Positions 23,313 through 58,152 of a DNA stretch of 64,000 bases are shown one piece after another (the first letter of the stretch is position 1; every line of letters begins with the position of its first letter). Both the position numbers and the translations under genes were made by a program. The notes beneath the pieces were generated by a model that worked only from the letters and a program-made list of their open reading frames with translations, was not told the origin of the DNA and ran no database searches. This DNA comes from Betaproteobacteria bacterium (GTDB lineage: Bacteria > Pseudomonadota > Gammaproteobacteria > Burkholderiales > Casimicrobiaceae). The stretch covers positions 1,061 through 65,060 of the forward strand of contig JADIZG010000017.1 of assembly GCA_016704895.1 (NCBI GenBank). The letters are read 5' to 3'.

Positions 23313-25892
23313 TCAGGCGGGATGATCCGACGAACGAAGCGAGGCCTCCGCGTCGCGCTGCGTCACCGAGTCCAGCGCTGCGGCAACGCGCGATCCGAGC
23401 ACGCCGGCACGCCACGATTCGATGAGGTTGAGGTGATGGCCCGGGATGTCGACGACCGTAACGCCGCGCATCGCGTAGCGCCCCCAGCCGAGTTGCGGGT
23501 CGGCGATGGAAGGAGGGTCGACGGCACGGAAGACGGTGATCGCGCCGTCGAAAGGCGTGAGGTCGTGGTGGCCCAGCGCGCCCTGAAGCCCGGGCACGTA
23601 CCGCAGCATCACGCCGCGCCGCAGCGACGCGCGTCCCGGCACGACCGCACGCGCGACGGTGCGCAGGCGCATCGAGACGCGGACGCGCGCGCGGGCACCC
23701 AGGTGCGCGCGCGGCAGGCGCCAGAACGGAATCGTCAGGTCCAGGTAGCCGCCGTTCGCGTTCTGCGCCGCCGTGTCGATCACGCCGAGGAACGTGACCT
23801 CGGCGCGGCGGCCCGCGAGCGCGCGGGCGATCTCGACCGCGACCATGCCGCCGATCGAGTAGCCGATCAGCAGATAGGGTCCTTCCGGCTGCGCGGCGAG
23901 CATCGCGTCGACACAGTGCTTCGCCGTCTCGACGATCGATACGCGCTGCTCGAGGCGTATCAGCGAAAGGCCCGCGACCGGCCGGCGCGGGTCGAGATGT
24001 CGCAGCAGCGGCGCGTACCAGATCGGGTCGCCGACCATCCCCGGAACGCACCACAGGCGGGGCAAGTCCCCGCCGGCCCGGAGCGTCACTGCCTCGACCG
24101 GAACACCGTCGCTTGCGTCGATCGCCCGCGCGAGCGCTTCGACGGTCGGCGACGCGACGAGCGTCGCCGCGGGCAGCGCCTTGCCCTCCGTCCTGGCGAT
24201 GCGGGCGAGCAGTTCGACGGCGAGGAGCGAATCGCCGCCGAGCGCGAAGAAGTCGTCGTTCGCGCCGGCGTGCGGCGAACGAAGCACGTCCCGGAAGTGC
24301 GCGAGGATCCGGCGTTTCCTGTCGTTCGCCGGCGATGTCTCGCTGTGCGCGCCGGCGTCGGGCGGCACGAGCCGCGCGAGGGCGAAACGGTCGACCTTCC
24401 CGGTCGCGGTCGTCGGAAGCTCGTCGAGGAACACGAACGTCGACGGCAGCATGTAGGGCGGGAGGCGGTCGGCGAGCCTTCGGCGCAACGCGGGTCCATC
24501 GGCATCGGCAGGCGATGCCGCGGTCACGTAGGCGACGATCCGGTCGGCCTCCGCGCGCCGTCCGGGGACCGGCGCGAGCGCGGCGGCCCGCGCGACGCCT
24601 CTCGTGGCCGCCAGCGCGGCCTCGACCTCGGCCAGGTCGACCGAGTGGCCGCGGATCTTGACGCGGCTGCCGGTGCGGCCGAGGAAATGCAGCCGACCCT
24701 CGGCGTCGATGCGGCCCCGGTCGCCGCTCACGTAGCAGCGCCGCCCGGGATGCCGCGGATCGGGGGGAAGGAACTGCGCGTCCAGATCGGGGCGCTTCCA
24801 GTAGCCGGGACTCACGTGCGCGCTGCACACGACGATCGCACCTGCTTCGTCGACGGCGGCGTCGCTGCCGTCGTCGCGCCGGATCCGCACGTCGACGCCC
24901 GGCGTGGGGCGACCGAGCGGCAGGATGGCGTCCCTCGGCGGCGGGTCGCCGTGCGAGACGACGTGCTGGGCGATGCAGTCGGCCTCGGACGCGCCGAGCT
25001 GGTTGACCAGGATCGCGTCGTCACGCGTGTGCGCCGCGAAGAGCGCGGCGTCGCTCGTGTACGTGGCCTCCGCGCCGATGTCGATCACGCGCACGTGCCG
25101 GAGCTTCGCGCCCGGCGGCAGCGTCGCGCACAGTCCGCGGAAGACGGTCGGAAACGCGTGGATCGCGGTGATCCGCTCGCGATCCAGCCATTGCGCGAGT
25201 CCGTCGATGCCGTCGCGGCGCAGGTCGTACGCGCACACGGTGGCGCCGTTCAGCAGTCCTCCGTAGACGTGCATGTTGGCCGCCGCGAAGCTCATCGTCC
25301 AGAGGAGCGACAGCCGGTCGTCCTCGCCGAGCGAGAGTCGGCGCACGAAGGCGTCGGCGAAGAACATGACGCCGCGCTGGGTCTGCGTCACGCCCTTGGG
25401 CGAACCGGTGGACCCCGACGTGTAGAGGACGTACGCGAGCGCGTCCGGCGCGACCTCGGGCAACGCGAACGCCGGATCGGGCCGTTCGTCGCCGTCGATC
25501 TCGACGACCGCGCAGGTCGCGCCCGCGAGCGAACGGGCTCGCGCCGCGAGTGTCCGATCCGTCAGGAGGATGGCCGGGGCGCCATCGCGCAGGACGAAGC
25601 CCAGGCGCTCGTCGGGATCGCCGCCATCGAGCGGCACGTAGGCCCGGCCGCAACGCAGCGACGCGACCATCGCCTGGACGGTCGTCGTCTTGCGCGAGAA
25701 CAGCAACGCCGCGAAGCCGGGACGGCCGGCCGCCGCCGCCTCGCTGCGCGCGGCGATCGCGCGCGACGTCGACTCGAGCGTCGCGTAGTCGATCGCGCGG
25801 CCGTCCTCGACGAGCGCCGTCTTGTGCGGCAACCGCCGCGCGACGTCCTCGAACCGCGCCCCGAAGGCGCGCGCCTGTGATTCCTCCGCCAT
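23313..25892 (-). CDS. stand-alone NRPS-like adenylation-PCP-thioesterase protein (859 aa, frame intact)
   Basis: ATG 25892 within track ORF 23313..26441. A-domain cores: LYTSGSTGSPKGV, YVSGDRG, GRTGSRVKIRG, PTTATGKVDR. PCP: FFALGGDSLLAVEL. TE: GYSIGG. Confidence 0.85.
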   Translation of the reverse strand: MAEESQARAFGARFEDVARRLPHKTALVEDGRAIDYATLESTSRAIAARSEAAAAGRPGFAALLFSRKTTTVQAMVASLRCGRAYVPLDGGDPDERLGFVLRDGAPAILLTDRTLAARARSLAGATCAVVEIDGDERPDPAFALPEVAPDALAYVLYTSGSTGSPKGVTQTQRGVMFFADAFVRRLSLGEDDRLSLLWTMSFAAANMHVYGGLLNGATVCAYDLRRDGIDGLAQWLDRERITAIHAFPTVFRGLCATLPPGAKLRHVRVIDIGAEATYTSDAALFAAHTRDDAILVNQLGASEADCIAQHVVSHGDPPPRDAILPLGRPTPGVDVRIRRDDGSDAAVDEAGAIVVCSAHVSPGYWKRPDLDAQFLPPDPRHPGRRCYVSGDRGRIDAEGRLHFLGRTGSRVKIRGHSVDLAEVEAALAATRGVARAAALAPVPGRRAEADRIVAYVTAASPADADGPALRRRLADRLPPYMLPSTFVFLDELPTTATGKVDRFALARLVPPDAGAHSETSPANDRKRRILAHFRDVLRSPHAGANDDFFALGGDSLLAVELLARIARTEGKALPAATLVASPTVEALARAIDASDGVPVEAVTLRAGGDLPRLWCVPGMVGDPIWYAPLLRHLDPRRPVAGLSLIRLEQRVSIVETAKHCVDAMLAAQPEGPYLLIGYSIGGMVAVEIARALAGRRAEVTFLGVIDTAAQNANGGYLDLTIPFWRLPRAHLGARARVRVSMRLRTVARAVVPGRASLRRGVMLRYVPGLQGALGHHDLTPFDGAITVFRAVDPPSIADPQLGWGRYAMRGVTVVDIPGHHLNLIESWRAGVLGSRVAAALDSVTQRDAEASLRSSDHPA

Positions 25893-26070
25893 GGCCCCCC
25901 CGCCTTGGCCCCTCCCCGCGAGAATCATAGCGCTCGTCGCGTTCCCGTGCCGGGTCGCCGCTCCGGCAGGTGCGCCGGTTCGGGTCGTACGCGCTTCGCA
26001 CGATGGTAGGCTCACCGTCCATGCGCACGCCCCTCGTCCCCGGTGGGTTTCCCGCGCGCGTGCCCGGCCG

Positions 26071-26493
26071 ATGAACGCGGAGGCGGGGTCGCTCGCGGGC
26101 CTGTTCGCGTCGAGCTTCCTGTCGGCGACGCTGCTGCCCGGTAATTCCGAGATCGTGCTCGCGGCGGTCGTGGCCAACCTGCCGCACCTGTTCTGGACGG
26201 CGGTCGCCGTCGCGACGCTCGGCAACACCGTCGGCGGCATGACGTCGTACGCGCTGGGCCGGCTGATTCCCGCGGAAGGCGGACGAAAGCTCGCGCCGCG
26301 GGCGGTCGCGCTCGCGCAGCGGTACGGCATTCCGATGCTGCTGCTGTCCTGGGTGCCGGTCATCGGCGACGCGCTGTGCGTCGCGTCGGGATGGCTGCGC
26401 CAGGACTGGCGACTCGCGACGCTCGCGATCGCGGCGGGCAAGCTCGCGCGCTACGTCGTCGTCGCGGAGGGCGTGCGGCGGGTCGTGGGCTGA
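26071..26493 (+). CDS. YqaA-family (DedA-related) membrane protein
   Basis: ATG 26071 within track ORF 25822..26493. Motifs: LLPGNSEIVLAAVV..GNTVGGMTSYALGR..LLLSWVPVIGDALCVASGWLR. Confidence 0.7.
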   Translation: MNAEAGSLAGLFASSFLSATLLPGNSEIVLAAVVANLPHLFWTAVAVATLGNTVGGMTSYALGRLIPAEGGRKLAPRAVALAQRYGIPMLLLSWVPVIGDALCVASGWLRQDWRLATLAIAAGKLARYVVVAEGVRRVVG

Positions 26494-26816: not shown

Positions 26817-29800
26817 ATGAATCTCCAGGGACAGGGCAGCAACGGCGCCGCGAGAACGGCGCCGCCGTCGTTCGCCCAGCAGCGCCTGTGGCTGCTCGAC
26901 CGGCTGTATTCCGATGAGGCGATCTACAACGAGCCGCAGGCCTTTCGTCTCCGCGGGCCGCTCGACTGCGACGCGCTGAGGCGGGCAGTGAACGAGGTCG
27001 TTCGGCGCCACGAGGCGCTGCGCACGCGCTTCGCCGTCGATGACGCGCGGTTGGTGCAGGTGATCGCGCCGGCGCTCGACGTCCCTCTCGACGTCGAGGA
27101 CCTGCGCGCGCTGGCGGAGACGGAGCGCGACGCGGAGGCCAGGCGGATCGCGCAGGCCGAACGCCGCGCACGCTTCGATCTCGCGCGGGGACCGCTGCTG
27201 CGAGTACGCCTGCTGTGCCTGCGCGAAGGCGAGCACTGGCTGCTGCTGACCATGCACCACATCGCCACCGACGGGTGGTCGGTGGGCGTGCTGTGGCGCG
27301 AGCTCGCGGTGCTCTACGCCGCATTCCATGCCGGGCAGCCGTCGCCGCTGCCCGCGCTGGCCGCGCAGTACGCCGACTACGCGGTGCGCCAGCGCGAGGG
27401 GTTGAAGGGGGAAGCGCTGGAGAGGGCGCTCGCCTACTGGAAGAGGACGCTGGCAGGAATGCACGCGCTGGAGCTCCCGACCGACCGGCCGCGGCCGGCG
27501 ACGGCGAGCCATCGCGGCGACGTCGTGGGGTTCGAGATCGACGCCGATCTCACGCGCAGGTTGAAGGAGCTCGCCCGGCGCGAGCGGGCGACGCTGTTCA
27601 TGACGCTGCTCGCGGCCTTTCAGGTCCTGCTGCATCGCTACTCGGGCCAGGAGGACGTCGCCGTCGGCGTGCCGGTCGCCGGACGCAGCGCGCCCGAGGT
27701 CGAGCCGCTGATCGGGTTCTTCGTCAACATGCTGGTGATGCGCGGCGACCTGAGCGGGCAGCCCGGCTTCGACGCTTTGCTCGGCCGCGTTCGGCAGCAG
27801 GCGCTCGATGCGTACGAGCACCAGGAGCTGCCGTTCGAGCGGATCGTGATGGAGCTCGCGCCCGCCCGGGCGACGACGCGCAATCCGCTGTTCCAGGTGT
27901 CGTTCGCCCTGCACAACGCGGGGCAGGTGACGTTCCGCCTGCCGGGACTCGCCGTCGAGGAGATCGACGACCTCGGCGGCGACGACGTCAAGTTCGACCT
28001 GTCGCTCACGCTGACGGAAGCGTCGGCGTCCTGCGCGGCACCTTCCACTTCGCGACGGCGTTGTTCGATGCGGCCACGATCGGGCGCATGGCGGTCCAGC
28101 TCCGGACGCTGCTCTCGTCGATCGCGGCGGATCCGCGGCAGCGCATCGGGCGCCTGGCGCTGCAGAGTGCAGAGGAGCGCGAGCGGCGCCTGGCCGAGGG
28201 AATGCGCGCCCCGTCGCCCTATCCCGAGTCGACGCGGCTCGAGCGGCTGTTCGAGGCGCAGGCGGCCCTGCGGCCCGATGCGACAGCGGTGATCGGCGCG
28301 AGCGAATCGCTCACCTACCGCGATCTGGACCTGCGGGCCAACCGGCTCGCTCGCGAGCTCGACGCCTCCGGGTCCGGCGCGCCGCGCCGCGTGGGCATCT
28401 GTCTCGAGCGCGGACCGGACCTCGTCGTCGCGCTGCTCGCGACCCTCAAGGCCGGCGCGGCCTACGTGCCGCTCGACCCGGACCTTCCCGCCGAGCGCCT
28501 CTCCGCGATGCTCGCGGATGCGTCGGTCGCGCTGGTGCTCACCGACGAGCGCCTGTCGGCACGCCTGCCGGCCGGCGCCCATCGCGTCGTGTGCATCGAC
28601 CGGGACGCGCTGCGGATCGCGCAGCGTCCCGGCGGCGCCGTCGGCGCGGGCGACGATGCCGACGACCTCGCCTGCGTGATGTACACGTCGGCTCGTCCGG
28701 CCGGCCGAAGGGCGTGCTGATCGCGCACCGCGCGGTGTCCCGTCTCGTGTGCGGCAGCGACTACGTGAGGCTCGGTGCGGACGACGTGGTGGCGCACCTC
28801 TCGAATCCGGCGTTCGACGCGACGACGTTCGAGGTCTGGGGCGCACTGCTCAACGGTGCGGCCCTCGTCCCGATCGACAAGGCCACGGTGCTCGCGCCGC
28901 GAGCGCTCGCGACGGCGTTGCGCGCGAACGGCGTCACGACGCTGTTTCTCACGACCGCGTTGTTCAACGCGGTGGCGCGAGAGGTCCCCGACGCGTTCTC
29001 GGGCTGCCGCCAGGTCCTGTTCGGCGGCGAGGCGGTCGAGCCGCGCTGGGTCCGCGACGTGCTGAACGCGGGACCGCCGGGCCGGCTCCTGCACGTCTAC
29101 GGCCCGACCGAGGCGACGACGTTCGCGACCTGGCATCAAGTGCGCGCCGAGGACGCCGACCGGTCCACGATCCCGATCGGCCGGCCGATCGCCAACACCG
29201 AGGTGCTCATCCTCGACGCCGAGCGCGAGCCGGTTCCCGTCGGCGTTCCGGGCGAGATACACATCGGCGGACCCGGGCTGGCGCGCGGGTATCTCGGTCT
29301 GCCCGAACTCACCGCCGAGCGATTCGTGCCGCATCCGTTCGACGTCGATCCCGCCGCCCGTCTCTACCGGACCGGCGATCGCGCGCGCCACCGGGCCGAC
29401 GGCGCCATCGAGTTCCTCGGTCGCGTCGATCGCCAGGTGAAGATCCGCGGGCATCGCATCGAGCTCGCCGAGATCGAAGCTGCGCTCGCGCGGCTACCCT
29501 ACGTGCGCGAGGCGGTGGTGCTGGTGCGGGGCGCGACCAGCGACACGCGCCGGATCGTGGCGTGGGTCGTCCCGACCGACGCCGACGGGCCGCCCCCCGC
29601 GAACCTGCGCAAGGACCTGCGCCGGAGCCTTCCCGACTACATGCTGCCGGCGGCGACGGTGTGGTTGCCGGCGCTTCCGCTCAACGCGAACGGGAAGGTC
29701 GACCCTCTCGCGTTGCCGGAGCCCGGTGACACCGCCCGGCCTGCCGCGGGCGTCGCGGTCCCGCCGCGCGACATGTTCGAGGGCGTGCTGGTCCGCATCT

Positions 29801-30771
29801 GGGAGGACCTGCTCGGGATCACGGGCATCGGCGTGTTCGACCACTTCTTCGAGATCGGGGGCCATTCGCTGCTCGCCGCGCGCCTCGTCGACACGATCGA
29901 GCGCGAGACCGGGCTCGCGGTGCCGCTCACCGCGCTTTTCGCCGACGACACGATCGACGGACTGGCGAGGGCGCTGCGCGACGGGGCGCCCGACGCGAAC
30001 GCACCGATCGTCGCGATCAACGCGCAAGGCACGCGGCCGCCGTTCGTGTTCCTGCACGGGGACTTCCAGGCGGGCGGCTTCTACAGCCGCGCGCTGGCCC
30101 GCGCGCTCGGACCCGATCAGCCGACGCTGATCGTGCATCCGCACGGCCTCGTCGGCGACGCGATCCCCGAATCGATCGAGGCGATGGCCGCCGACCGCCT
30201 GCGTGCGCTGCAGGCCATCCGCCCGGTCGGGCCGTACGTGATCGGCGGGCACTGCAACGGCGCGCTGGTGGCGTTCGAGATGGCGCGCCAGCTCATCTCG
30301 CGCGGCGAGTCGGTCCCCGCGGTCGTGCTGATCGAGGCGCGCGCCGGCGCCCGGCGCCCGCTCGCGCGACGCCGGCGGTGCGTACGTCAAGTTCGACGCC
30401 GCGGGCCGCCCCGAGGCGCTCGTGCCACGCGACCGGGTCTCGGAAGCGGAGCTCCGCTATGCGCGCGCGATCGACCGTTACGAGGGCGGGCACTTCGACG
30501 GCCACCTGGTGATCGTCCAGGCGCAGGAATTGCACGATCCCGCTCCGGACGCCGGCTGGTCGCGCTTCGCGCGGTCCTGGGAAGGCCACATCGTGCCCGG
30601 CGGGCACGTGACGCTCATCACGCGACACCTCGCCGATCTGACGCGCACGGTCCGCGACGCCGTCACGCGCGCGCGGGTCTCCGTCCGACGGATCCGGCGC
30701 AGAGGCGGGGAAACGCCGACGAGCCAGCCGCGAACGCGCAGGCAGCGCAACGGGCAGGCCGCGGCGGCTGA
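26817..30771 (+). CDS. NRPS module C-A-PCP-TE(Cys) (3 frameshifts as given; true 3' end unresolved)
   Basis: ATG 26817. C domain MHHIATDGWS (track 26778..28292). A domain: LTYRDLDLRANRLA, VMYTS-(G)SSGRPKG, FDATTFE, YGPTEAT, GEIHIGGPGLARGY, YRTGDRA, GRVDRQVKIRG, NGKVD (tracks 27215..28720 and 28591..30771). PCP: FFEIGGHSLLA. TE-like: GGHCNG ... PGGHVTLI (continues in track 30422..31912). Frame switches lie near 28015, 28690 and 30350. Confidence 0.75.
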
Positions 30772-30901: not shown

Positions 30902-33900
30902 ATGCCCAAGTCACGAATCGCCCCCTCTCCCTCGTTGCCGATCGCGGTCATCGGCATGGCGCTGCGCGTCCCCGGGGCGTCCTCCACGCAGCGGTTCTGG
31001 CGGAACCTCGTCGAAGGCCGCGACTGCCTCACCCGTCCCACTGCCGACGCGCTTCGCCAGGCGGGAATCGGACAGGAGAGGCTTTCCCATCCGGACTTCG
31101 TCCGGGCCTTGCCGATCCTCGACGACGTCGAGCATTTCGACGCCGACTTCTTCGACATGTCGGCATTGGAGGCCGAGGTCACCGACCCCGCGCAGCGCCT
31201 GTTCCTCGAGTGCGCCTGGGAAAGTCTCGAGAGCGCCGGCGTGGTGCCCGGGCGGTCGGGGCCCGTCACCGGCGTGTTCGGCGGCTACGAGGGAAACTAC
31301 CGGGAGAAGGTGCTCTCCGGCGTCATCGACCTGCGCCGCGACCCCGGATTGAACCTTCCGGTGCGCATCGGCAACGCGGTGGATTTCCTCACCACGCGGG
31401 TGTCCCACAAGCTCGATCTGACCGGACCCAGCTTCGGGGTGATGGCGGCCTGCGCGACCTCGCTGATGGCCGTCGACCTCGCGGTCCAGAGCCTGCGGCG
31501 CGGCGAATGCGAGGTTGCGCTGGCCGGGGGGGTCACGGTCAGCCTGCCCCGGCTCGACGGCTACGTCGCCGGAGTCGAGGGCATGCTCTCGGCATCGGGG
31601 CGCCTCCGGCCCTTCGACGCCGCGGCCGACGGCACGATCTTCGGGAGCGGCGTGGGCGTGGTCACGCTGCGTCCGCTCGCCGATGCGCTGGCGGCAGGCA
31701 ATCCGATCCACGGCGTGATCCTGGGGGTGGGCGCGAGCAACGACGGGAACCCGCCGGGCAAGGAGAGCTTCGTCGCGCCGAGCCCGAGGGTCAGATCGCT
31801 GCGATCGAGGCTGCGCTTCGCGATGCGGCGATCGCGCCGGAGACCCTCGGTTACGTGGAAGCCCACGGCACCGGCACGCGGCTCGGGGATCCCGTCGAGA
31901 TCGCGGCGCTGACCGACGTCTTTCGCCGGCACACGGACCGGACCGGCTATTGCTCGCTGGGATCGGTCAAGGCCAACGTCGGGCATCTGCGCTGCGGCGC
32001 GGGCGTCGCCAGCCTGATCAAGGCGTGCCTCGTCCTGTCCCACCGCACGCTGCCGCCGCTCGCGAACTTCGAGCGCGCCAATCCCAGGATCGACTTCGAG
32101 CGCAGCCCCTTCCACGTTCACACCGACGCGCGTCCGTGGCAGGCGGGAACGACCCCGCGGCGCGCGGCGGTGTCCTCGTTCGGCTTCGGAGGGTCCAACG
32201 TCCACGTCGTTCTGGAGGAACACCTGCCGGTGCCGTCCCGGCCCTCCGCGCGGCGTACCCACCTGCTCGTTGTGTCGGCTCGCACGGAGGCGGCGCTGGC
32301 GCGCAGGGTCGCGGAGCTTGGCGCGCACCTCGAAGAGCACCCGGCGCTTCCCGCTGCGGATGTCGCCCACACGCTGCAACGGGGACGGCGCGCGTTCCGC
32401 ACCGCGCCTGCTTCCTCGCCGACGGCGAGCGGATCCCGCCCCGGACGCTGGACGTCCGCCGTCCGCTGGCGTCCGGCGTCGCGCCCGCGCGCGCGGCGTC
32501 GCCGGTCTTCGTCTTCCCGGGCCAGGGGGCACAGCGGGTTGGCGCAGGGCGCGAGCTCTACGCGCGCGAGGCGCTGTTCCGGGATCTGGTCGACGAGTGT
32601 GCGGAAGCGCTCGCGCCCGAACTGGGCGTCGACGTTCGCGCGCTGCTGGGATACGTCGCGGGACGCGACGACGCGGACGCCGCCGAGATCCTGAGGCGCA
32701 CCGCCAACGCCCAGCCCTCGCTGTTCGTGGTCGGGTACGCGACCGCGCGCCTCTTCATGTCCTGGGGCTTGAGGCCCGCGGCGATGCTGGGGCACTCGCT
32801 GGGCGAGCTCGTCGCTGCCTGTCTCGCCGACGTCTTCTCGCTCGCCGACGGCTTGAAGCTGGTGGCCGCCCGTGCCCGCCTGATGCAGGAGTGCGAGGCG
32901 GGATCCATGGCTGCGGTCCTCCTGCCGGAAGGCGCCCTCGCGTCCCGGCTTCCGCCATCCCTCGAGATCGCCGCCGTCAACGCTCCATCGATCTCGGTAG
33001 TGTCGGGTCCCGTCGAGGCCGTCGCGCGGTTCTGCGAGTCGCTGGAACGGGAGGGTGTCGGGACGCAGCGCATCGCGACGTCGCACGCGTTCCACTCGCG
33101 GATGATGGAACCCGCGCTGCCCGGGTTCGCGCGCGTGCTCGCCGGCGTCGCGCTCCACGCCCCCCGGATCCCGGTGATCTCGAACGCCACCGGCGTTCCC
33201 CTTCGTCCCGACCAGGCGACGGATCCGCGCTACTGGGTCGACCACGTCCGGCACCCGGTCCGCTTCTCGGCCGGCGTCGAGCATCTCCTTTCGCTCGACA
33301 ACCCGGCCTTCGTCGACATGGGACCCGGTTCGACGTTGAGCGACCTGATCCGCCGTCACGATCCGGCGGCCCGCGTCTTTCCTGTCCTCGCGCCTTCGGC
33401 GTCCGGCAACGACGAGGCAACGATCGCCCGCGCCGCGCTCGGCGGCCTCTGGTGCGCGGGAGTGGAGGTCGACTGGGGCGCGGCCGAGGCCGGCGAACGG
33501 CGCCAGTTGCTGTCGCTGCCGACCTATCCGTTCCAGCGCACGCGCCATTGGCGCGACGACGAATCGGGCCCGCCTGCCGATCCCCGGAAGATGCTGTACG
33601 AGCGGGGCTTCCGCGAATCGCCCCTCGCGGCCGACGCGACGCTCGACGTCGCGCGCCCGTGGGTGATCCTCGGCGCGGACCGGGGGCTGGCTGGCGCGCT
33701 ACGCGAACGGCTCGAAGCCGCGGGAGCGCGCGTCACGACGCTCGTCCCCGGCGACGCGTTCGCGTGCGCGGGCGAGAACCGGTTCGACGTCCGGCCGGAT
33801 TCGCGGGAGGACCTGGGCGCGGCCCTCGCGGCCAGCGTTGCGACCGGAGGCGGGCGCGCCATTCGCGTGCTCCACCTGGGATCGGTGACAGGGTCGTCGG

Positions 33901-36900
33901 GTCCGCACAACAGCGCGCAGGCCTTCGAGGATGCGGCCCGGACCGGGTTTTTCTCCCTCGTGGCGCTGACCCAGGCCGCCTACGATCGGAATCTCGACGA
34001 CGGACTCGAGGTCACGGTGGTCGCCGACGGATTGGCGCAGCTGGAAGGCGAGACGAACGTGCGCTTCGCCGAAAAGGCAGCGGTGCTGGGCGCCTGCCGC
34101 GACATCCCGCTGGAGTTGCCGGGCGTACGCGTGCGGGTCGTCGACGTTCCATGCTTCGACGCGGCTGGGGTCCCCGCCTGGTTGCCCGACGCCCTGCTCC
34201 GCGAGGCGGGCGCGGACGATGCGCCTGCCCTGGCTTGCCTCCGGCCCGCAGCCCGGTACGTCGAGCAGCTCTATGCGCTGCCGGCGATTCCGGAGTCGAG
34301 CCCCAGATTGCGCGAGGGCGGCGTGGTGATGATCACCGGCGGGACCGGCGGCCTGGGACTGCTGTTCGCGGGGGCGCTCTTCGACCTGTGTCGTGCGCGT
34401 CTCGCGCTCACCGCGCGATGGACGCCTCCACCGGAGGAAACGTGGCCCGAGCGGGCGCGGCAGGACGACAGGATCGGCCGGTCCCTTGCCGGCGTACTCG
34501 ACCTCAAGGCCCGCGGAGCGGAAGTCCTGATCGTGACGGCCGACGTGTCCGATCGCGACCAGGTGGCGCGTGCACTCGACGCGACCCGAGCCCGCTACGG
34601 CGGCCTCCACGGCGTCGTCCACGCGGCAGGGGCGCTGCAGCCGACCCCCGTGATCGACAAGACGCGGGAGGGCGCTGCGCGCGTGTTCGGCCCCAAGGTC
34701 CACGGCGCGTTCCACCTCGACGAGCTGCTCGCCGACGAGCCCCTCGACGTGTTCCTGCACGTCTCGTCGCAGGCGTCCCAGTTCCCCGGTCCCGGGCAGG
34801 TCGACTACGCGGCCGCCAACGCGGTGCTCGACGTCCTCGCGCAGAATCGCGCCGTGCGTCACGGCGGCCTCTCGTGCGCCACGGGGTGGGGCGCGTGGCA
34901 GGAAGCGGGCCTCGCGGCGGATCGCGTTCGGCAGACGCTGCAAGCCGACGCCGCACGCGCGGTTGCACGCGGCAAGCGCCCGCCGGACGAGGACTCGACG
35001 CCCATCGATCATCCGATCTTCCGGTCCCGGGCGCGCGCTCCGGGCGGCGACCTCGTGTACCGGGGTGTGCTCCGTTCGGGTTTCTGGCTGGTGGACGACC
35101 ATCTGCTCGACGGCAGGCCGCTCCTCAGCGGCACGACGACGCTGCAACTTGCCCGGACCGCGTTCCTCGACCACTCGACCGACGTCGGCGCGGTCGAGCT
35201 CTCCCGCGTTGCGTTCCTGCGCCCGCTCTTCGTGGCGGAGGGCGGGATGGAGATCGAGCTTCGCTTCAGTCGCTCCCGCGACGACGAGGCCTTCACGCTG
35301 CGCTCGCGCGCCGCGACCTCGCAGGGCGAGTGGCAGGTCAATTCGACTGGGTACGTTCGCAGGACTGCGGCGTCCCCCCGGCCGGTCCCGCGCGTTCCGC
35401 CGGTTCACCGATGGCAGGAGGCCGCCACTCGCAGGGTCTTTGGCGGCGCCCGCCTGACCGGCGGCCCTCGGTGGCAATGGCCGCGCCTCGAGCTCGAGCA
35501 CGAGGGTCGCGTCTGGGATCGGATGACGCTTCCGACGGCGTTCGCCGCCGACGTCGTGGCGTTCGATCTGCACCCGGCGCTCCTGGACGTTGCCACGATG
35601 GGCGCCGCGCGAACGCTGCGGACCGAGTCGGTGCCCCACACCTACGATTGCATCCGCATCTTCGCGGGGCTCATCCCGGACGTGCTCGCGCTTGCCGTCG
35701 AGCGCGATGCGGGGACGTCCACCGCCACGGACATCACGATCACCGACCTCGACGGCAGGACGCTGCTCGAGATCGAGGGGTACGTGATGCGTCCGATCGA
35801 GGGCTCGAGCCTCGCGCAGGAGCCGGGAGCGCGCAGTCCCGGCGACGCGCCCTCCGACCCCGGCTCCGGTCCGCGCAGGGTGGTCGTCGGCGAGGTCGGC
35901 AGCCTGGATTCGCTGCGCGTCGAAGCGTTCGCGCCGCGGAACCCGGGGCATGGCGAGGTTCGGATCGACGTCCACGCCACCGGACTCAACTTCCGCGACG
36001 TCCTCTCGGCGCTCGGCCAGATGCCGGGCGTCGGGTCCGGCCCTCCGGTGCCCGGCGGCGAGTGCAGCGGCATCGTCCGCGCCGTGGGACCCGGGGTGCG
36101 CCACCTCGCGCCCGGAGACGCAGTCGTGGCCATCGCCCGCGGATGCCTGGGCACCGACGTCACCACTGCGGCCCACGCCGTGGCGCGCATGCCCGGGAAC
36201 CTCGACTTCAACCGCGCCGCCGGACTGCCCATCGTCTTCCTCACCGCGCAGTACGCACTCGAGACGCTCGCGCACGTCGCGCGCGGGGAACGGGTCCTGA
36301 TCCACGCGGCGGCCGGCGGCGTGGGCCTGGCGGCCATCCAGATCGCCAAGTTCCTCGGCGCAGAGATCTACGCCACTGCCGGTCACCCGGAAAAGCGCGA
36401 ATACCTGCACTCGCTCGGCATCGAGCACGTCTTCGACTCGCGTTCGCTCAGCTTCGTCGACGGCATCCGCGACGCCACTGCCGGGCAGGGCGTCGACGTC
36501 GTGCTCAACTCGCTCGCCGGCGAGTTCATCCCCGCGAGCCTGGGGCTGCTGCGGCCGCAGGGGCGCTTCATCGAGATCGGCAAGCGCGACCTGCTGGCTG
36601 ACACGCCGCTGCACCTCGCGCCGTTCCTGCGCAACCTCACGTTCTCGGCGTTCGACCTGGGCCAGATCGTCGATGCGCAGCATCCGATGCTGCCGGCCAT
36701 GTTCGACGCGCTGCTCGATCGCTTCGCGCGCGGGGAGCTTCGCGCACTGCCTACCGGCGTGGTGCCGTTCGCGCGTGCCGACGAGGGCTTCCGTCGCATG
36801 GCGCGCGCGCAGCACATCGGCAAGATCGTGTTCGAGGTGCGGGCGGACACGAGCGAGCGCGGCGCCGTCGCCCGCGCGTTCGAGGAGACCTACGGGACGG

Positions 36901-37334
36901 GCGTTTCCGTCGAATGGGGGCTCGACGTGTTCCGCCGCATCCTCACGTGGAGCGAGGCGCCGGCCTACCTGCTGGCGATGGGCTCGGCCGTCGAGGGTGT
37001 GGGCACCTACGCGACGCGGCCCCGGAACGTGGCCGGCGGGGGGCGGGGCCGGGATTCCCTGCAGACCGCGTACCGGGCGCCGGAAACGGCCGTCGAGAAG
37101 GCGCTCGCGCTGTTGTGGGAGAAGACGCTGGGCATCCAGCCGATCGGCATCGACGACGACTTCATCGAGCTCGGCGGGGACTCGATCGAGGCGATCCAGG
37201 TCCAGCACGCCATCCACCGCGATTTCGACCTGCGCGTCAAGAACACGGAGTTCCTGGCCGAGCCCACGATCGCGGCGCTCGCGGCGCTGATCGCTGCTCG
37301 TGCCGAGGGCGACGCTGCGACGAGGCCTGCATGA
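30902..37334 (+). CDS. type I polyketide synthase, single fully reducing module KS-AT-KR-DH-ER-ACP (2 frameshifts as given)
   Basis: ATG 30902 gives MPKSRIAPSPSLPIAVIGMALRVPGAS. KS: AACATSL, EAHGTGT, NVGH (tracks 30422..31912 and 31210..32694). AT: FPGQGAQ, GHSLGE, AFHS. KR: ITGGTGGLG .. YAAANA. DH: HPIF .. LVDDHLLDGRPLLSG. ER: LNFRDV .. AAGGVGLAA. ACP: LGGDSIE (track 31950..37334). Switches lie near 31787 and 32400. Confidence 0.8.
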
Positions 37335-37410
37335 GCCTGGCGATGCAGAGGCGATCGCGAAAACGCTGCGCATGCCTGCCGCCACGGCCGGCAGGCCAGG
37401 GCGGAGGGCG

Positions 37411-38168
37411 ATGAAGGCGCCTGACGACGCCTGCGCCACGCTTCTGCACGCTCGTCGCAGCCGGGACGGGTGCGCCCCTCTACCTCGTGCCGTCGGTCGG
37501 CTCCACGCCACTGTCGCTGATGCGGCTGGCGAGGGCGATCGATCCCCGGCGCCCGGTCCGTTCGTTCGCCTACGCCGGCCTCGAGGACGACGCGGCGCCC
37601 CACCGCACGCTTGAGTCCATGGCGGCAGCCTGCGTCGAGGAACTGCTCGCGGCGTCGCCGGAGGGTCCGTACCTGCTCGGCGGGCATTGCCTCGGCGGAA
37701 CGGTCGCGCTCGAGATCGCGCTGCAACTGGAGGCGCGAGGTCGCAACGTGGCGCGACTCGTGGTCCTCGATTCCATCGCGCCGTTGATCGAGGGCACGCA
37801 TCGGGCGTCCGTCGGCCCGGACGCCTTCGGGTCGCGAGCCGCAGCCGCCGAGAGCAGCTTTCGCCGGGCGATCGAGGAGATCGTCAGCCGCACGATCGGC
37901 GCCTATCCGGTCATCGGCCCCGATGCGTTCCGCCGGTTGGGCGCCCTGCTCAAGCTGCACATCGAGGCGGGCGTCGCCTATCGCGCCCGCCCGCTCCGTG
38001 CGCGAACCTGCGTGCTGCGCACCGCGGGGTGTGGCGACGCCGTGCTGGACGGGTGGTCGAGCGTCGCGCCGGGTCGTCCCGGGCGACACGTTCTCGATGC
38101 TGCGCTTGCCGCACGTCGAGACCGTCGGGCGCATCCTGGGTCGGCTGCTCGTGGATGCCGTGCAATGA
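37411..38168 (+). CDS. stand-alone type II-like thioesterase with Cys at the nucleophile position (2 frameshifts as given)
   Basis: ATG 37411 (MKAPDDA..), then the frame of track ORF 37487 (APLYLVPSVGSTPLSLMRLA..PYLLGGHCLGGTVALEIA), then track 37923..38168 ([31 protein letters not shown], stop 38168). It is a paralogue of the TE in the NRPS. Confidence 0.6.
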
Positions 38169-38649
38169 CGTCACCAGCGACGCCCGTTCCCGGAGAGCCT
38201 CCGAACGCGCCAGGCGACGCGACCGACGGCCGCGACACGTCGTCCCCGCCTCCGCCGGCGCCGCGGGCGCTCCCCACCGCGTACGTCGCGCCGCGCAACG
38301 AGCTCGAGGCGCAACTGGCGCAGCTTTGGGAGAGCGTGCTGGCGGTCGTGCCGATCGGGATGGACGACGACTTCTTCGACCTGGGCGGCGAGTCGCTCCA
38401 CGCGTTCGCGTTGATCTCGCGCGTGCAGCGCGACCACGGCGTGACGCTGTCGCCCAGGGACCTGTTCGCGTGCTCCAGCGTGGGGGCGATGGCGGTCGTG
38501 GTCGGCGAGCGCCGGCAGCGCGCAGACCCCGCGGCGCGGCGGCGCGCGGCGCGCCGGCCGCAGGTCGCGCCGCGCGCCGCGCGAAGCCTCACGCGCGTCA
38601 AGGACTTGCCGCGGCATGCGTGCGGCCCCTCTGTTGCGCTGCGGTATGA
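38165..38649 (+). CDS. stand-alone peptidyl/acyl carrier protein (3' end uncertain)
   Basis: ATG 38165 overlaps the TE stop (ATGA). [46 protein letters not shown] is the carrier-protein core. As given this frame has no stop until 42514. The only nearby stop (38647-38649) is in another frame. Confidence 0.5.
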
Positions 38650-38660
38650 TCGGTGCCGTC

Positions 38661-41600
38661 ATGAATGCCGTGGCCGAACCGGTCGTTTCCGTCGGTGCCG
38701 ATGCAGGCGTCGACGCGCCGCGCCTGCGCGAGATCCCGTACAACTACACGTCGTTCTCGGACCGCGAGATCGTCATCCGGCTGCTGGGCGCGGACGAATG
38801 GACGCTGCTCGACGAGCTGCGCGGCGAGCGGCGCACCGGGCGCTCGGCGCGGATGCTCTTCGAGGTGCTGGGCGACATCTGGGTCGTCGAGCGCAATCCG
38901 TACCTGCAGGACGACCTCACCGACAACCCGAAGCGACAGGCGCTGATCGTCGAGGCGCTGCGCCACCGGATCGCCGAGATCGAGAAGCGGCGGCAGGCGC
39001 AGTCGGGCGCCGACCCCGACCGCGACGCGAAGGTCGCGCGCCTGGTCGCGTCGGCATCGCGCGCGATCGACCGCTTCGAGGCGTCGTTCCCCGAAACGGC
39101 CGCCCTGCGCAAGCGCACGCGACGCGTGCTCGGCCGCCACACGCACCGCGACAACATCGCGTTCGACGGGCTCGCGCGCGTCTCGCACGTGACCGACGCG
39201 ACCGACTGGCGCGTCGAGTACCCGTTCGTCGTGCTCTACCCCGACACCGAGGACGAGGTGCGGGGGCTGGTGGAAGGCTGCATCGAGCTCGGGCTGACGA
39301 TCGTGCCGCGCGGCGGCGGCACCGGTTACACCGGCGGCGCCTGCCCGCTCACGCCGCGCGCGGCCGTGATCAACACCGAGAAGCTCGAGCGGCTCTCGGG
39401 AGTCGAGCGCATCGCGATTCCCGGACGCGCGGAACCGGTGACGACGATCGACGCGGGCGCGGGCGTGGTCACCCGGCGCGTGATGGAAGCGGCGGAACGC
39501 GAGGGCCTCGTGTTCGCGGTGGATCCGACGTCGGCGGACGCGTCGTGCATCGGCGGCAACGTCGCGATGAACGCGGGCGGCAAGAAGGCGGTGCTGTGGG
39601 GCACGGCGGTCGACAACCTGCTGTCGTGGCGGATGGTGACGCCCGACGCCGAGTGGATCGAGGTCGAGCGGCAGGACCACAACCTCGGCAAGATCCACGA
39701 TGCGCCGGTCGCGACGTTCGCGGTGCGCCGGCTCGCGCGCGACGGCACGTCGGTGATCTCGACCGAGACGATTCGCGTGCCGGGCGCGCGCTTCCGCAAG
39801 GAAGGGCTCGGCAAGGACGTGACCGACAAGTTCCTCGAGGGGCTGCCGGGCGTCCAGAAGGAAGGCTGCGACGGGATCATCACGAGCGCGCGCTTCGTGC
39901 TGCACCGGATGCCGCCCGCGGTCCGCACCGTGTGCCTGGAGTTCTTCGGCCAGGTGCGCGACAGCGTGCCGTCGATCGTCGAGATCAAGCGCTACCTCGA
40001 CCAGGGCCCGGCGGCGCGATCCTCGCGGGCCTCGAGCACCTCGACGAGCGCTACGTGAAGGCGGTCGGCTACGCGACCAAGGCGAAGCGCCACGGCCGGC
40101 CGAAGATGGTGCTGATCGGCGACATCGTCGGCGAGTCCGACGACGCGGTCGCCCGCGCCGCGAGCGAGGTCGTGCGCATGGCGGCCGCCCGGGGCGCCGA
40201 GGGCTTCGTCGCGGTGTCGGCCGAGAGCCGCAGGAAATTCTGGCTCGACCGCGCGCGCACGGCCGCGATCGCGAAGCACACGAACGCGTTCAAGATCAAC
40301 GAGGACGTCGTCATCCCGCTCGAGCGGCTCGGCGACTATTCCGACGGCGTCGAGCGCATCAACATCGAGCTGTCGATCGGCAACAAGCTGAAGCTCGCCG
40401 ACGCGCTCGCGGCGCTGTTCGCGCGCCCCGATGCGCTGCACCTGTGGGGTCCGGACGACGAAGTGCGTCCGCCGCAGGAGCAGGTCGACGAGCGCTTCGA
40501 GGAGGCGCGCGGGATCGTCGCCGCGGTGCGCTCGCGCTGGCAGGACCTGCTCGACCGGATCGACGAGACGTTCCCGGCCCTGCAGAGCCACGCGAGCGTC
40601 GTGTCGTGGAAGGCCGAGCTGCGCGCGCCGCTCGAGGACCTGTTCGACGGCCGGGCGTTCGCGCCCGTGCTCGCGGCGATCGGCGAGACGCACGCGCGCG
40701 TGCTGCGGAGCCGCGTCTTCGTCGCGCTGCACATGCACGCGGGCGACGGCAACGTGCACACGAACCTGCCGGTCAACTCGGACGACTACGGGATGCTGCG
40801 AGAGGCGACCGCGGCGGTCTCGCGCATCATGGCGCTCGCGAGGAGCCTCGACGGCGTCGTGTCGGGCGAGCACGGCATCGGCATCACCAAGCTCGAGTAC
40901 CTGACCGACGCGGAGCTCGCGCCGTTCGCCGACTACAAGCGGCGCGTCGACCCGCACGGGCGCTTCAACGCCGGCAAGCTGCTGCGCGATCCCGCGTGTC
41001 CGGCCGACCTCACGAACGCGTACACGCCGTCGTTCTCGCTGATCGGCGCCGAGAGCCTGATCCTCGAGGCGTCCGAGATCGGGAGGATCGCCGACTCGGT
41101 CAAGGACTGCCTGCGCTGCGGCAAGTGCAAGCCGGTGTGCTCGACGCACGTGCCGCGCGCGAACCTGCTCTACAGCCCGCGCAACAAGATCCTGGCGACG
41201 TCGCTGCTGATCGAGGCGTTCCTCTACGAGGAGCAGACGCGGCGCGGCGTCTCGCTGCGCCATTTCGACGAGTTCTCGGACGTGGCCGACCACTGCACCG
41301 TGTGCCACAAGTGCGAGGCGCCCTGCCCGGTCGACATCGACTTCGGCGACGTGTCGATCGCGATGCGCAACCTGCTGCGGCGCGAGGGCAAGCGCAAGTT
41401 CAGCCCCGGCACCGCGGCGGCGATGGCGTTCCTGACCGTGACCGACCCGTCGACGATCAAGGCGATGCGCGCCGGCATGATCGGGCTCGGCTACCGGGCG
41501 CAGCGCCTCGGCTACCGGATCGCGAAGCGCCTGGGGCTCGCGGGCATCCAGGCGAAGCGCCCGCCGGCGACCGTCGGCAAGCCGTCGCTCAAGGCGCAGG

Positions 41601-42514
41601 TGATCCACTTCGTCAACAAGCCGATGCCGGGCGGCCTGCCCAAGCGCACGTCGCGCGCGCTGCTCGACATCGAGGACGACGCGATCGTGCCGATCATCCG
41701 CGACCCGGCGAAGGTCACCGACGATGCCGACGCGGTGTTCTACTTCCCGGGCTGCGGCTCGGAGCGGCTGTTCTCGCAGGTCGGGCTCGCGACGCAGGCG
41801 ATGCTCTACCACCTGGGCGTGCAGACCGTGCTTCCGCCGGGCTACCTGTGCTGCGGCTATCCGCAGAGCGCCTCGGGCGACCACGGCAAGGGGCAGGCGA
41901 TCACGACGGCGAACCGCGTGCTGTTCCACCGCGTCGCCAACACGCTGAACTACCTCGACATCAAGACCGTGCTCGTTTCCTGCGGCACGTGCATGGACCA
42001 GCTGCTCAAGTACGAGTTCGGCCGGATCTTCCCGGGATGCCGGCTGCTCGACATCCACGAGTACCTGATGGAGAAGGGCGTGAAGCTCGACGGCGTCGCC
42101 GGCGCGCGCTACATGTACCACGACCCCTGCCACGCGCCGATGAAGACCTACGCGCCGGCCAGGGTCGTCGGGACGCTGATGGGCACGCAGGTGCCGCTCA
42201 ACGAGCGTTGCTGCGGCGAGTCGGGGACGCTCGCGGTGTCGCGGCCCGACGTGTCGACGCAGGTGCGCTTCCGCAAGGAAGAGGAGATGCGCCGCGGCGC
42301 GGACGCGCTGCGTGCCGACGGCCACGGCGGCCCGGTGAAGATCCTCACGTCCTGTCCGTCGTGCCTGCAGGGCCTCGGGCGCTTCTCCGACGACGCGGGT
42401 ACCGAGGCCGACTACGTGGTCGTCGAGATCGCGCGCCACCTGCTCGGCGAGCGCTGGCTCGAGGACTACGTCGCGAAGGCGAACGCGGGCGGAATCGAGC
42501 GGGTGCTGGTCTGA
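38661..42514 (+). CDS. DUF3683 / FAD-linked oxidase / (Fe-S)-binding CCG-domain fusion dehydrogenase, YdiJ-like (one frameshift as given)
   Basis: ATG 38661. [22 protein letters not shown] (DUF3683), FAD-binding PCMH region (track 38616..40058). The rest is in the frame of track 37487..42514 ([35 protein letters not shown], two CCG-type Cys motifs). The switch is near 40006-40016. Confidence 0.8.
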
Positions 42515-42529
42515 ACGCCGCGGCGGGGC

Positions 42530-42766
42530 TCAGCGCATCGAGCTCGACGCCGGCCTGACTGCCGACGCGAAGTGCGGAACCGTCGCGATCACGCGCGGCT
42601 GCATCTCGCGGGCCCAGAGCGTCCCGGCCTCGGGAGGGGCATCGGCGATGATCCACGGCAGCCCGACGCCGAAGGCCAGCGACGCCAGCGCGATGGCGGC
42701 GAGTATCCCGAGCGCGCGACGGATCGGATGCGTCGACGGGGTGTTGTGGGTCGAGGTTGCGTTCAT
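42530..42766 (-). CDS. small single-TM hypothetical protein
   Basis: ATG 42766 within track ORF 42530..42880: MNATSTHNTPSTHPIRRALGILAAIALASLAFGVGLPWII. Confidence 0.35.
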   Translation of the reverse strand: MNATSTHNTPSTHPIRRALGILAAIALASLAFGVGLPWIIADAPPEAGTLWAREMQPRVIATVPHFASAVRPASSSMR

Positions 42767-43069
42767 GGTGTCTTTGCCTGTCGTCTTCGATGGCGGGGGC
42801 CCGTCCGGGGTTCGGTGCGGTGCGCCGTGGATCGATGGCTCCACGTTGCGCCGGGACATGGCTCCGCCGCGACGTAACAACCCGCTGCTGCAGTGCAGAA
42901 AATTCGCGCAACCGCTCCCGGGAACGTGCCCTCCGGACGGCGTCAGGCGCCCGCCCGGCGGCCAACGAACGAATATGCCGTTGTGCTATAAACGCCCGAT
43001 GAACGCCCTTGCGCGAGAGCCTGCCCGTCTCGTCCGCAGCCCGGCCGGAGACAGGAGCGGAGCGTTGCC

Positions 43070-44716: not shown

Positions 44717-44741
44717 GTAGGGGTCGGTAGGGGTCAGAGCC

Positions 44742-44834
44742 GTCGGTAGGGGTCAGAGCCGTAACATTCGCCGGCACGATCGGCGGTCTGCGGTACCGGC
44801 GCACGCGAATGTTACGGCTCTGACCCCTACCGAC
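44742..44834. repeat. REP-like perfect 30-bp inverted repeat (33-nt loop), preceded by a tandem copy of its outer 19 nt
   Basis: GTCGGTAGGGGTCAGAGCCGTAACATTCGC (44742-44771) and its exact reverse complement (44805-44834). GTCGGTAGGGGTCAGAGCC is also present at 44724-44742. The element fills the gap between the stop at 44716 and the yyaL start at 44849. Confidence 0.85.
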
Positions 44835-44848
44835 AGACCCCTACCGAC

Positions 44849-46907
<2,059 letters not shown>

Positions 46908-47033
46908 TGCGGGTCAACGCGCGGGGCGGCCGGTCCGTTAGAGACTTCGACACCCGGCGACCCGCGGATGGCGGGGGCAGCGAGCTTCCAGTAACATAGG
47001 CCGGTTTCAACCCCTGCTTTGGAGAATTGATCC

Positions 47034-47357
47034 ATGAAGGTTTCGATGTTGGTCCTCGCCGGCGCCGCGATGCTCGCGGCCGGTGCCGCCCAAGCAAGCG
47101 ACGACGACGCCAAGAAGCTCCTCCAGAAATCCGGTTGTACGGCATGCCATTCGGAGGACAAGAAGCTCGTCGGCCCGGCCTACAAGGACGTGGCGGCCAA
47201 GTACAAGGGCGACGCCGCCGCGGCCGGCAAGCTCGCCGAGAAGGTCAAGAAGGGCGGATCGGGCGTCTGGGGCCCGGTGCCGATGCCGCCGAACGCGAAC
47301 GTCAAGGACGACGACATCAAGACGATGGTCGCCTACGTCCTCGCGCTCAAGAAGTAA
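47034..47357 (+). CDS. class I cytochrome c (c551/c552-type)
   Basis: Track ORF of 107 aa with a signal peptide, CTACH haem motif, GPVPMPPN Met ligand region, and RBS GGAG upstream. Confidence 0.85.
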   Translation: MKVSMLVLAGAAMLAAGAAQASDDDAKKLLQKSGCTACHSEDKKLVGPAYKDVAAKYKGDAAAAGKLAEKVKKGGSGVWGPVPMPPNANVKDDDIKTMVAYVLALKK

Positions 47358-57409: not shown

Positions 57410-57490
57410 AAACGGGGTCAGACCCTGCTTTCGATCGGCCCGTGGGCTATCGACCGTCGGCCAGGGGCGAAAGCAGGATCTGACCCCGTT
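57410..57490. repeat. imperfect 24-bp inverted repeat sharing the GGGGTCAGACCCTGCTTT core with the 56.4 kb hairpin
   Basis: AAACGGGGTCAGACCCTGCTTTCG (57410-57433) pairs with CGAAAGCAGGATCTGACCCCGTTT (57467-57490), with one mismatch. Confidence 0.7.
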
Positions 57491-57504
57491 TCGGGATCCG
57501 GGGC

Positions 57505-58014: not shown

Positions 58015-58152
58015 GGTCGCGGGGGGCGGGCGGGCGCGCGGGGGCGCGAGCGTCCCCGGATGGTACCGGCAAATCGGGAAACTCCCCCTCGCGCCGGCGC
58101 TTTGCTACACTTTTCGGGCGTCAAGCCGATCCGCCTCCGTTCCCATCCGACG

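Follow-up and report, generated by a model that had tools for sequence, protein, structure and literature searches.

A 64,000-nt stretch of contig JADIZG010000017.1 from a Betaproteobacteria bacterium (positions 1,061 to 65,060, forward strand, of assembly GCA_016704895.1; hereafter the window) holds at 23.3-38.5 kb a small nonribosomal peptide synthetase-polyketide synthase (NRPS-PKS) cluster of an uncultured Burkholderiales/Casimicrobiaceae-like bacterium. Two proteins of thioesterase (TE) fold in this cluster carry cysteine at the nucleophile elbow: a stand-alone TE-like protein, here labeled TE*, and the TE domain fused to a C-A-PCP-TE synthetase (condensation, adenylation, peptidyl carrier protein, thioesterase), here labeled the NRPS TE. 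TE* also lacks the catalytic His, and the free-standing family it represents, which has dispensed with this residue, keeps its Cys and is found with carriers of PKS or FAAL (fatty acyl-AMP ligase) genes, is a more interesting result than the Cys pair itself. Tentatively, we favor a model in which the cluster would make an N-acyl-Ile/Val product, with TE* serving as a Cys-based acyl shuttle and the NRPS TE releasing the product without a strained ring. The features at the center of this model are as follows.

26817..30771, plus strand: NRPS with domains C-A-PCP-TE and A-domain code DAFFLGVTFK (Ile/Val).
30040..30771, plus strand: TE domain of the NRPS, with a His-Cys-Asn-Gly elbow, Glu as the acid at position I (VVLIEAR) and His in PGGH.
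30253..30255, plus strand: TGC codon for the nucleophile Cys of the NRPS TE, within PYVIGGHCNGALVAFEMA.
30605..30607, plus strand: CAC codon for the predicted catalytic His of the NRPS TE (VPGGH).
30902..37334, plus strand: fully reducing type I PKS, KS-AT-KR-DH-ER-ACP (ACP, acyl carrier protein), with its terminal carrier directly before TE*.
37372..38168, plus strand: TE*, with the elbow Cys, the triad-acid Asp (LVVLDS) and Thr for the catalytic His (PGDTFSML).
37688..37690, plus strand: TGC codon for the nucleophile-position Cys of TE* (GGHCLGG), within PYLLGGHCLGGTVALEIA.
38088..38090, plus strand: ACG codon for the TE* Thr at the catalytic His position (GDT, not GDH).
38165..38525, plus strand: small PCP-like carrier (FFDLGGESL) whose start overlaps the TE* stop (ATGA); its end is estimated from contig L084.

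The two TGC codons, which a preliminary description of this DNA had pointed out, are borne out in the sequence, and a six-frame translation of the window contains no GHCxG motif other than those of TE* and the NRPS TE. Both proteins match the Pfam thioesterase family PF00975 above its cut-off of 26.4 bits (82.5 bits for TE* and 58.2 bits for the NRPS TE, with 64.7 bits for a third TE on the minus strand). In a phmmer search of PDB sequences, each Cys aligns with the nucleophile Cys of AB3403 (GGWCFGG) as well as with the nucleophile Ser of the Vlm2, NocB and DEBS thioesterases. AlphaFold models place the residue at a strand-Cys-helix turn: strand 102-107, Cys108 and helix 109-123 in P0001 (93% identical to TE*, pLDDT 85.5), and strand 143-148, Cys149 and helix 150-164 in P0075 (71% identical to the NRPS PCP-TE, pLDDT 89.7). 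By alignment and model, both TEs have the G-x-S/C-x-G nucleophile motif between beta5 and helix C, and the best Foldseek matches for both models are all PKS or NRPS TEs. The same TGC codons are present in two independent contigs that are 96% identical to the window (L084 and L086), and the Cys is invariant among homologs, with 54/54 for TE* and 44/44 for the clade of the NRPS TE. Because alignments, models, independent codons and family-wide invariance agree, the objections that the Cys might be misaligned or a sequencing error both fail. The observation of two Cys TEs is confirmed, and several uncultured Burkholderiales/Casimicrobiaceae genomes encode the two as a conserved pair; the interpretation first given to the pair is partly supported, as detailed below. 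That such TEs are rare agrees with the literature, in which Cys is the less common choice of TE nucleophile (PMC11298585, PMC6668435, PMC11792885).

The two Cys TEs had also been called paralogs, which stands at the superfamily level only. By BLASTP, TE* scores 62-67 bits against the NRPS TE, whereas it reaches 118 bits against a Tolypothrix (cyanobacterial) NRPS Cys-TE, 85-102 bits against Ser-type TEs and 75 bits against the Ser TE of its own cluster, indicating that the two are not sister paralogs. At the NRPS C-termini of cyanobacteria, Lysobacter/Xanthomonas and Acidobacteria, TEs that combine GHC[FL]GG with a His occur commonly, and Cys is thus scattered through the family.

A downstream catalytic His had been expected in both proteins. 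It is found in the NRPS TE, within PGGH (His in 44/44 clade members), but the PGD of TE* is followed by Thr, which HMMER pairs with the PGDH His of AB3403 and Vlm2. The G-x-H that follows the last strand in type I TEs is therefore present in the NRPS TE and missing from TE*. Across the 54 TE* homologs, which extend down to ~35% identity, this position is Thr in 50, Ser in two and Ala in two, and the triad acid, Asp135 in TE*, is D or E in all 54. We also searched 1.84 billion representative proteins with a profile and inspected the best 150 matches, with a consistent picture: ~50 clusters at 50% identity comprise free-standing proteins of 240-265 aa with a [HYFQ]-Cys nucleophile and a D/E acid, in which the His position is T, A, S or M but never H. 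Those among the same 150 matches that combine Ser or Cys with His are C-terminal domains of long synthetases. Literature searches returned no specific match for a His-less Cys TE-like transacylase and no description of the TE* family, and NCBIfam has no specific family for TE*, the NRPS TE, the small PCP or the putative DedA protein encoded upstream.

These sequence patterns favor acyl transfer over hydrolysis as the likely function of TE*. We further propose, with less assurance than the model of the cluster as a whole, that TE* may represent an undescribed family of free-standing proteins of ~250 aa that would combine the type I TE fold with a retained Cys and acid, dispense with His, and serve as thiol-to-thiol (or thiol-to-amine) acyl transferases dedicated to unloading fully reducing PKS or FAAL carriers; as part of the same proposal, the family would be distributed widely among uncultured Burkholderiales, Methylomirabilota and other lineages. 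Separate from these homologs, further GHCFGG TE-like proteins without the canonical His occur in Paludibaculum, Acidobacteria and Bryobacterales (L025, L027, L029 and L082, with AGKADRIF and PGRAAAIF at the corresponding segment), and in L024 the His is displaced by two residues (PGDLNHIF); these five are independent His-less or His-shifted Cys lineages.

The gene neighborhood of TE* is informative about its likely partners. Among GTDB genomes and metagenome contigs, TE* orthologs of 50-64% identity were found only in metagenome-assembled genomes (MAGs), assigned to Casimicrobiaceae/Burkholderiales/Betaproteobacteria, Methylomirabilota and, for one bin, Saprospiraceae. The gene immediately before TE* always has an acyl carrier domain at its end, being either a fully reducing PKS gene or a FAAL-ACP gene. 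A small, translationally coupled PCP usually comes next after TE*, with the TE* stop and PCP start overlapping in the window as well as in at least 10 loci. The order PKS(...ACP)-TE*-PCP is kept in L001, L004-L006, L008, L009, L011-L013, L084 and L088, with a C-A-PCP-TE gene upstream in about half of the loci of this type. In L015, the end of a FAAL-ACP gene overlaps the start of TE*. Together with the variant gene orders in L014 and L087 described below, this arrangement leads us to regard the upstream carrier, loaded with a fatty acyl chain, as the invariant partner of TE*. The surroundings of two of these variants differ in other respects: L015:7854-10756 (an Arenicellales MAG) has TE*, here with GDM, beside a P450 and an SDR, and L014:9968-11736 (a Spongiihabitans MAG) contains an Asp/Asn beta-hydroxylase; close by lie a halogenase-like gene and genes for a PPTase, a PCP-TE and an A domain.

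In the model we favor, the finished fatty acyl chain would move from the PKS carrier to Cys108 of TE* by thiol-thioester exchange, which would need no general base once the thiolate has formed. TE* would transfer the chain to a thiol instead of hydrolyzing it because it has no His to activate water, and the acceptor would be the co-encoded PCP or, where this is absent, another thiol. The C domain would then couple the acyl group to Ile/Val-S-PCP, and the cis-acting Cys-His-Glu TE would release the product by hydrolysis or aminolysis, not by forming a beta-lactone or beta-lactam. The product of the cluster would most likely be an N-acyl-Ile/Val lipoamino acid or a short lipopeptide.

Several observations weigh against this model. 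L087 consists of PKS-TE* only and lacks a PCP or NRPS within 10 kb, and in L014 the PKS-TE* pair is followed by the Asp/Asn hydroxylase rather than by a PCP; because it is absent after TE* in both loci, the PCP cannot be the universal acceptor. The donor to the C domain is uncertain, given that this domain is nearer to elongation-type C domains such as those of Txo1/2 and TycC than to known lipoinitiation C domains (1e-93 against the Txo1/Txo2/TycC domains, compared with 4e-34 against the C domain of AB3403). The frame-breaking deletions described below mean that the window copy may be non-functional in this genome. Lastly, a lid residue of TE*, His198, could in principle substitute for the missing base. 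It is His in 48/54 close homologs and Q, L or Y in the wider family, where Cys and acid are kept, and we provisionally set it aside as a relocated catalytic base since its conservation is limited to the close homologs.

The same observations bear on whether TE* might instead be the hydrolytic chain-releasing TE of the PKS, using a Cys-Asp dyad or the lid His to discharge a free fatty acid. A minimal conserved unit of PKS plus TE*, as in L087, would fit such an enzyme, as would an acid present in 100% of members, the frequency of His198 among close homologs and a fold that is that of a normal type I TE. We consider it rather unlikely nonetheless: His198 is replaced while Cys and acid stay, the canonical His position drifts among T, A, S and M, the pattern expected of a site that need not supply a general base, and a translationally coupled carrier lies directly downstream at most loci. 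The loss of the canonical His throughout the family could also signify a catalytically dead adaptor that only docks carrier proteins, for which PacP, with a TE domain lacking the triad and spontaneous transfer, is a precedent (PMC8748450). A dead site would be expected to drift, however, and it is not only the Cys that is kept, in 54/54 homologs and across the ~50 divergent 50%-identity clusters, but also the residue before it (His/Tyr), Ser43 and the D/E acid. These conserved residues make a dead adaptor decidedly improbable.

The NRPS TE, by contrast with TE*, keeps by alignment a full triad of Cys, His and Glu/Asp at the canonical position. Its clade (n = 44) has the elbow [H/Y/F]-Cys-Asn-Gly, and the acid at position I, directly after beta6, is E or D in 39/44 members; candidate acids at position II, after beta7, are kept in 25-29/44, a reading based on the alignment and on modeled secondary structure. 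Position I in the window is the Glu of VVLIEAR, which pairs with the AB3403 Asp (VMIDTR) in the alignment. In a fold search with the NRPS PCP-TE model, AB3403 is the best match (E 5e-18), with SulM (8W2D) at rank 22 and ObiF (6N8E) at rank 26, and neither SulM nor ObiF was found in the phmmer search of PDB sequences at E<1. The likeness to AB3403 is confined to the TE; since the C domain is not closest to that of AB3403, we rejected the NRPS as an ortholog of AB3403 over the whole protein. In the lid of the P0075 model, the initial helix that is usual in type I TEs gives way to a short beta-hairpin (residues 194-204; window ~30390-30440), after which there is a single lid helix. P0074, from a related organism, was dropped as a modeling template because of compensating frameshifts in its lid region, where two indels put ~30 residues out of frame and then back, in the same lid segment as a frame break at ~30341 in the window.

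The specificity of the A domain constrains what this TE could release. The code was extracted by alignment to the GrsA-PheA core, with a numbering that reproduces the known GrsA code DAWTIAAICK. Both the window and L001, the intact syntenic Casimicrobiaceae contig CAJPFI010000017.1, give DAFFLGVTFK. The identical code is reported for Ile/Val positions of cyanopeptolin synthetases and for Ile domains of the aeruginosin/suomilide family; the Thr code listed alongside is DFWNIGMVHK (PMC2533009, PMC13122637). The C-terminal residue would therefore have no beta-OH or beta-NH to cyclize, and Pfam-level annotation of the window cluster contains neither a hydroxylase nor a sulfotransferase.

The Cys nucleophiles had initially been linked to strained-ring release as in ObiF and SulM, and we find this reading, in which the NRPS TE above all would form a beta-lactone or beta-lactam, very improbable. 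In its favor are the Cys itself and, as the sole other feature pointing that way, the Asn that follows it: Asn directly after the nucleophile Cys has been described as unique to SulTE among known TEs (PMC11298585), and the NRPS TE has His-Cys-Asn where SulTE has Gln-Cys-Asn, with Asn in 39/44 members of the clade; the Gln is absent here. (This Asn lies in window 30250-30258 and can be seen in alignment A4 of the clade.) The acid argues in the opposite direction. ObiF and SulM carry their Asp after beta7, at position II, with Gly at position I in ObiF, and this relocated Asp has been singled out as a feature accompanying four-membered ring closure (PMC6668435, PMC11298585); the acid of the NRPS TE is at position I, as in AB3403. 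The low fold ranks of SulM and ObiF and their absence from the sequence matches, given above, also count against it. Other Cys TEs, such as the polymyxin TE, carry out ordinary chemistry (PMC11792885). The strained-ring reading is not supported because an exact Ile/Val code leaves no beta-nucleophile and the cluster has no hydroxylase, and AB3403 is the closest solved relative of both TEs.

The window copy itself contains sequence breaks that affect how these genes are read. Frame breaks were located by a frame plot of G+C at third codon positions (GC3) and by tblastn with proteins of L001, and no large gene forms a single open reading frame (ORF) in the window. Their positions are as follows.

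~28026, 28690, 30341, 30674 and 30718: NRPS.
~31765 and 32398: PKS.
~37445 and 38074: TE*.
~38520: PCP, near its stop codon.
~40008: DUF3683 oxidase, outside the cluster.
~45050: DsbH, outside the cluster.

TE* is accordingly spread over three frames (~37372-37444, 37445-38074 and 38075-38168). The stand-alone TE of the preliminary description, right in its Cys motif, was read by tacitly joining three frames; the gene spans 37372-38168, and the ATG at 37411 is an internal Met of the intact homolog. Relative to L084, TE* has lost 2 nt at ~37445 and 17 nt at ~38074, the latter taking out 'ALSLHD' (the last strand) just ahead of the GDT motif, and the stop codon of the PCP is missing. In DNA alignments with L084 and L086, which are short contigs from other samples, the window is always the shorter sequence where lengths differ, having lost 2 nt at four sites, 3 nt at another and 17 nt at one more.

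With at least 10 frame-breaking deletions in NRPS, PKS, TE* and PCP, including the 17 nt before GDT, the cluster could be decaying into true pseudogenes, in which case the Cys would have no current function here. We regard such decay as improbable. The deletions most likely reflect assembly or consensus error, seemingly of a systematic kind, because housekeeping-type genes are hit as well: breaks occur in the non-cluster DUF3683 oxidase and DsbH, and Pfam matches in GcvT, also outside the cluster, are truncated. That all differences from L084 and L086 are deletions of 2-17 nt points the same way, as do comparable breaks in other long-read-looking contigs (L083 and P0074). The frame is also open from the NRPS TE into the KS of the PKS; a single NRPS-PKS polypeptide with an internal TE was rejected, as a stop closes the frame behind the TE in intact homologs, where the PKS is encoded separately.

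The remaining features of the cluster lie upstream of the NRPS.

23313..25892, minus strand: A-PCP-TE with a canonical Ser-Asp-His TE (GYSIGG, VIDTAA, IPGHH) and A-domain code AAMHRIQCIK.
23856-23858, minus strand: Ser codon of GYSIGG in the A-PCP-TE.
25822..26493, plus strand: possible DedA/VTT-family membrane protein, from a weak Pfam match below the cut-off.

The usual Ser motif had been reported for the minus-strand TE, as is borne out here. Its A-domain code lacks Asp235, the residue binding the alpha-amino group, and this domain therefore probably activates a non-amino acid; a long ORF upstream of the likely start (MAEESQ at 25892) is probably spurious. The PKS has KR ahead of DH and ER, where the usual order is KS-AT-DH-ER-KR-ACP, and its terminal carrier scores as PCP-like in NCBIfam. 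The window as a whole has a G+C content of ~72% and is syntenic with Casimicrobiaceae/Burkholderiales MAG contigs at 73-92% amino-acid identity; a Streptomyces origin, to which the base composition had pointed, was rejected on the strength of this synteny. A ComM/Mg-chelatase gene lies upstream of the cluster, and genes for a DUF3683 FAD oxidase, FimW, DsbH and cytochrome c and the gcv genes lie downstream. The chromosomal site of the cassette is constant in Casimicrobiaceae-like genomes (window 38445-47354; L001, L008, L011-L013 and L088), with the cassette immediately preceding a 1289-aa DUF3683/FAD-oxidase/Fer4/CCG protein, FimW, DsbH, cytochrome c and gcvT. Farther away, window 57484-59352 encodes a CMAS (cyclopropane-fatty-acyl-phospholipid synthase-like methyltransferase) with a long N-terminal extension that includes DUF7884.

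Chain release and hand-over decide the product of an assembly line. If our reading of TE* is true, a TE-fold family that lacks His and keeps Cys would represent a natural conversion of a hydrolase to a pure transacylase, a useful design rule for engineering PKS and NRPS off-loading, and it would provide a mining marker for uncharacterized lipoamino-acid and lipopeptide clusters in uncultured bacteria of soil and wastewater. The NRPS TE cautions against the shortcut from 'Cys TE' to beta-lactone or beta-lactam; the acid position and the A-domain specificity need checking first.

Cys TEs listed in the literature include ObiF, SulM, BulbE, the polymyxin TE and AB3403 (PMC11792885, PMC11298585), and of these AB3403 is the nearest counterpart. 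This C-A-PCP-TE protein of A. baumannii (PDB 4ZXH/4ZXI) is the best PDB sequence match of both window TEs (E 2.8e-14 and 7e-19), albeit at an identity of only ~25%; the structure of its Cys-type TE has been solved, with the Asp in the ordinary position, and its product is uncharacterized (PMC11298585). Like the NRPS TE, it is a single module with a Cys nucleophile and a position-I acid after beta6. The NRPS TE shares every feature of the AB3403 type (Cys, position-I acid, His, location at the end of a C-A-PCP-TE and closest similarity). TE* has the Cys and the acid in common with it, and differs in having PGDT where AB3403 has PGDH and in not being fused to a synthetase.

ObiF and SulM share the Cys nucleophile with both window TEs, and SulTE, which is also marked by a positively charged pocket, shares the following Asn with the NRPS TE (Q-C-N versus H-C-N). 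They differ in the position of the acid, as set out above, and in their substrates, which carry a beta-OH or beta-sulfamate, whereas the window A domain is Ile/Val-specific. The polymyxin and BulbE TEs, by description, are Cys-His TEs of NRPS termination modules like the NRPS TE; the former performs an ordinary macrolactamization and the latter an indole N-acylation (PMC11792885). Both are macrocyclases that end multi-module lines, in contrast to the single module and Ile/Val residue of the window.

For TE*, the closest parallels in proposed mode of action are the covalent, hydrolase-type carrier-to-carrier shuttles CmaE, SyrC, CysB and LgnA (PMC7966384, PMC8748450). By description these are free-standing, form a covalent acyl-enzyme and are encoded beside stand-alone carriers, which is the mode that we propose for TE*. 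CmaE, SyrC and CysB carry aminoacyl groups, whereas TE*, with its PF00975 type I TE fold, would carry a fatty acyl chain, and the type II TE LgnA has a canonical Ser-Asp-His triad where TE* is without the His. The TE0 domain of PacP resembles TE* as a TE fold lacking the typical triad within a carrier-to-carrier transfer system (PMC8748450), but it is considered inactive; TE*, by contrast, retains an invariant Cys as well as the acid.

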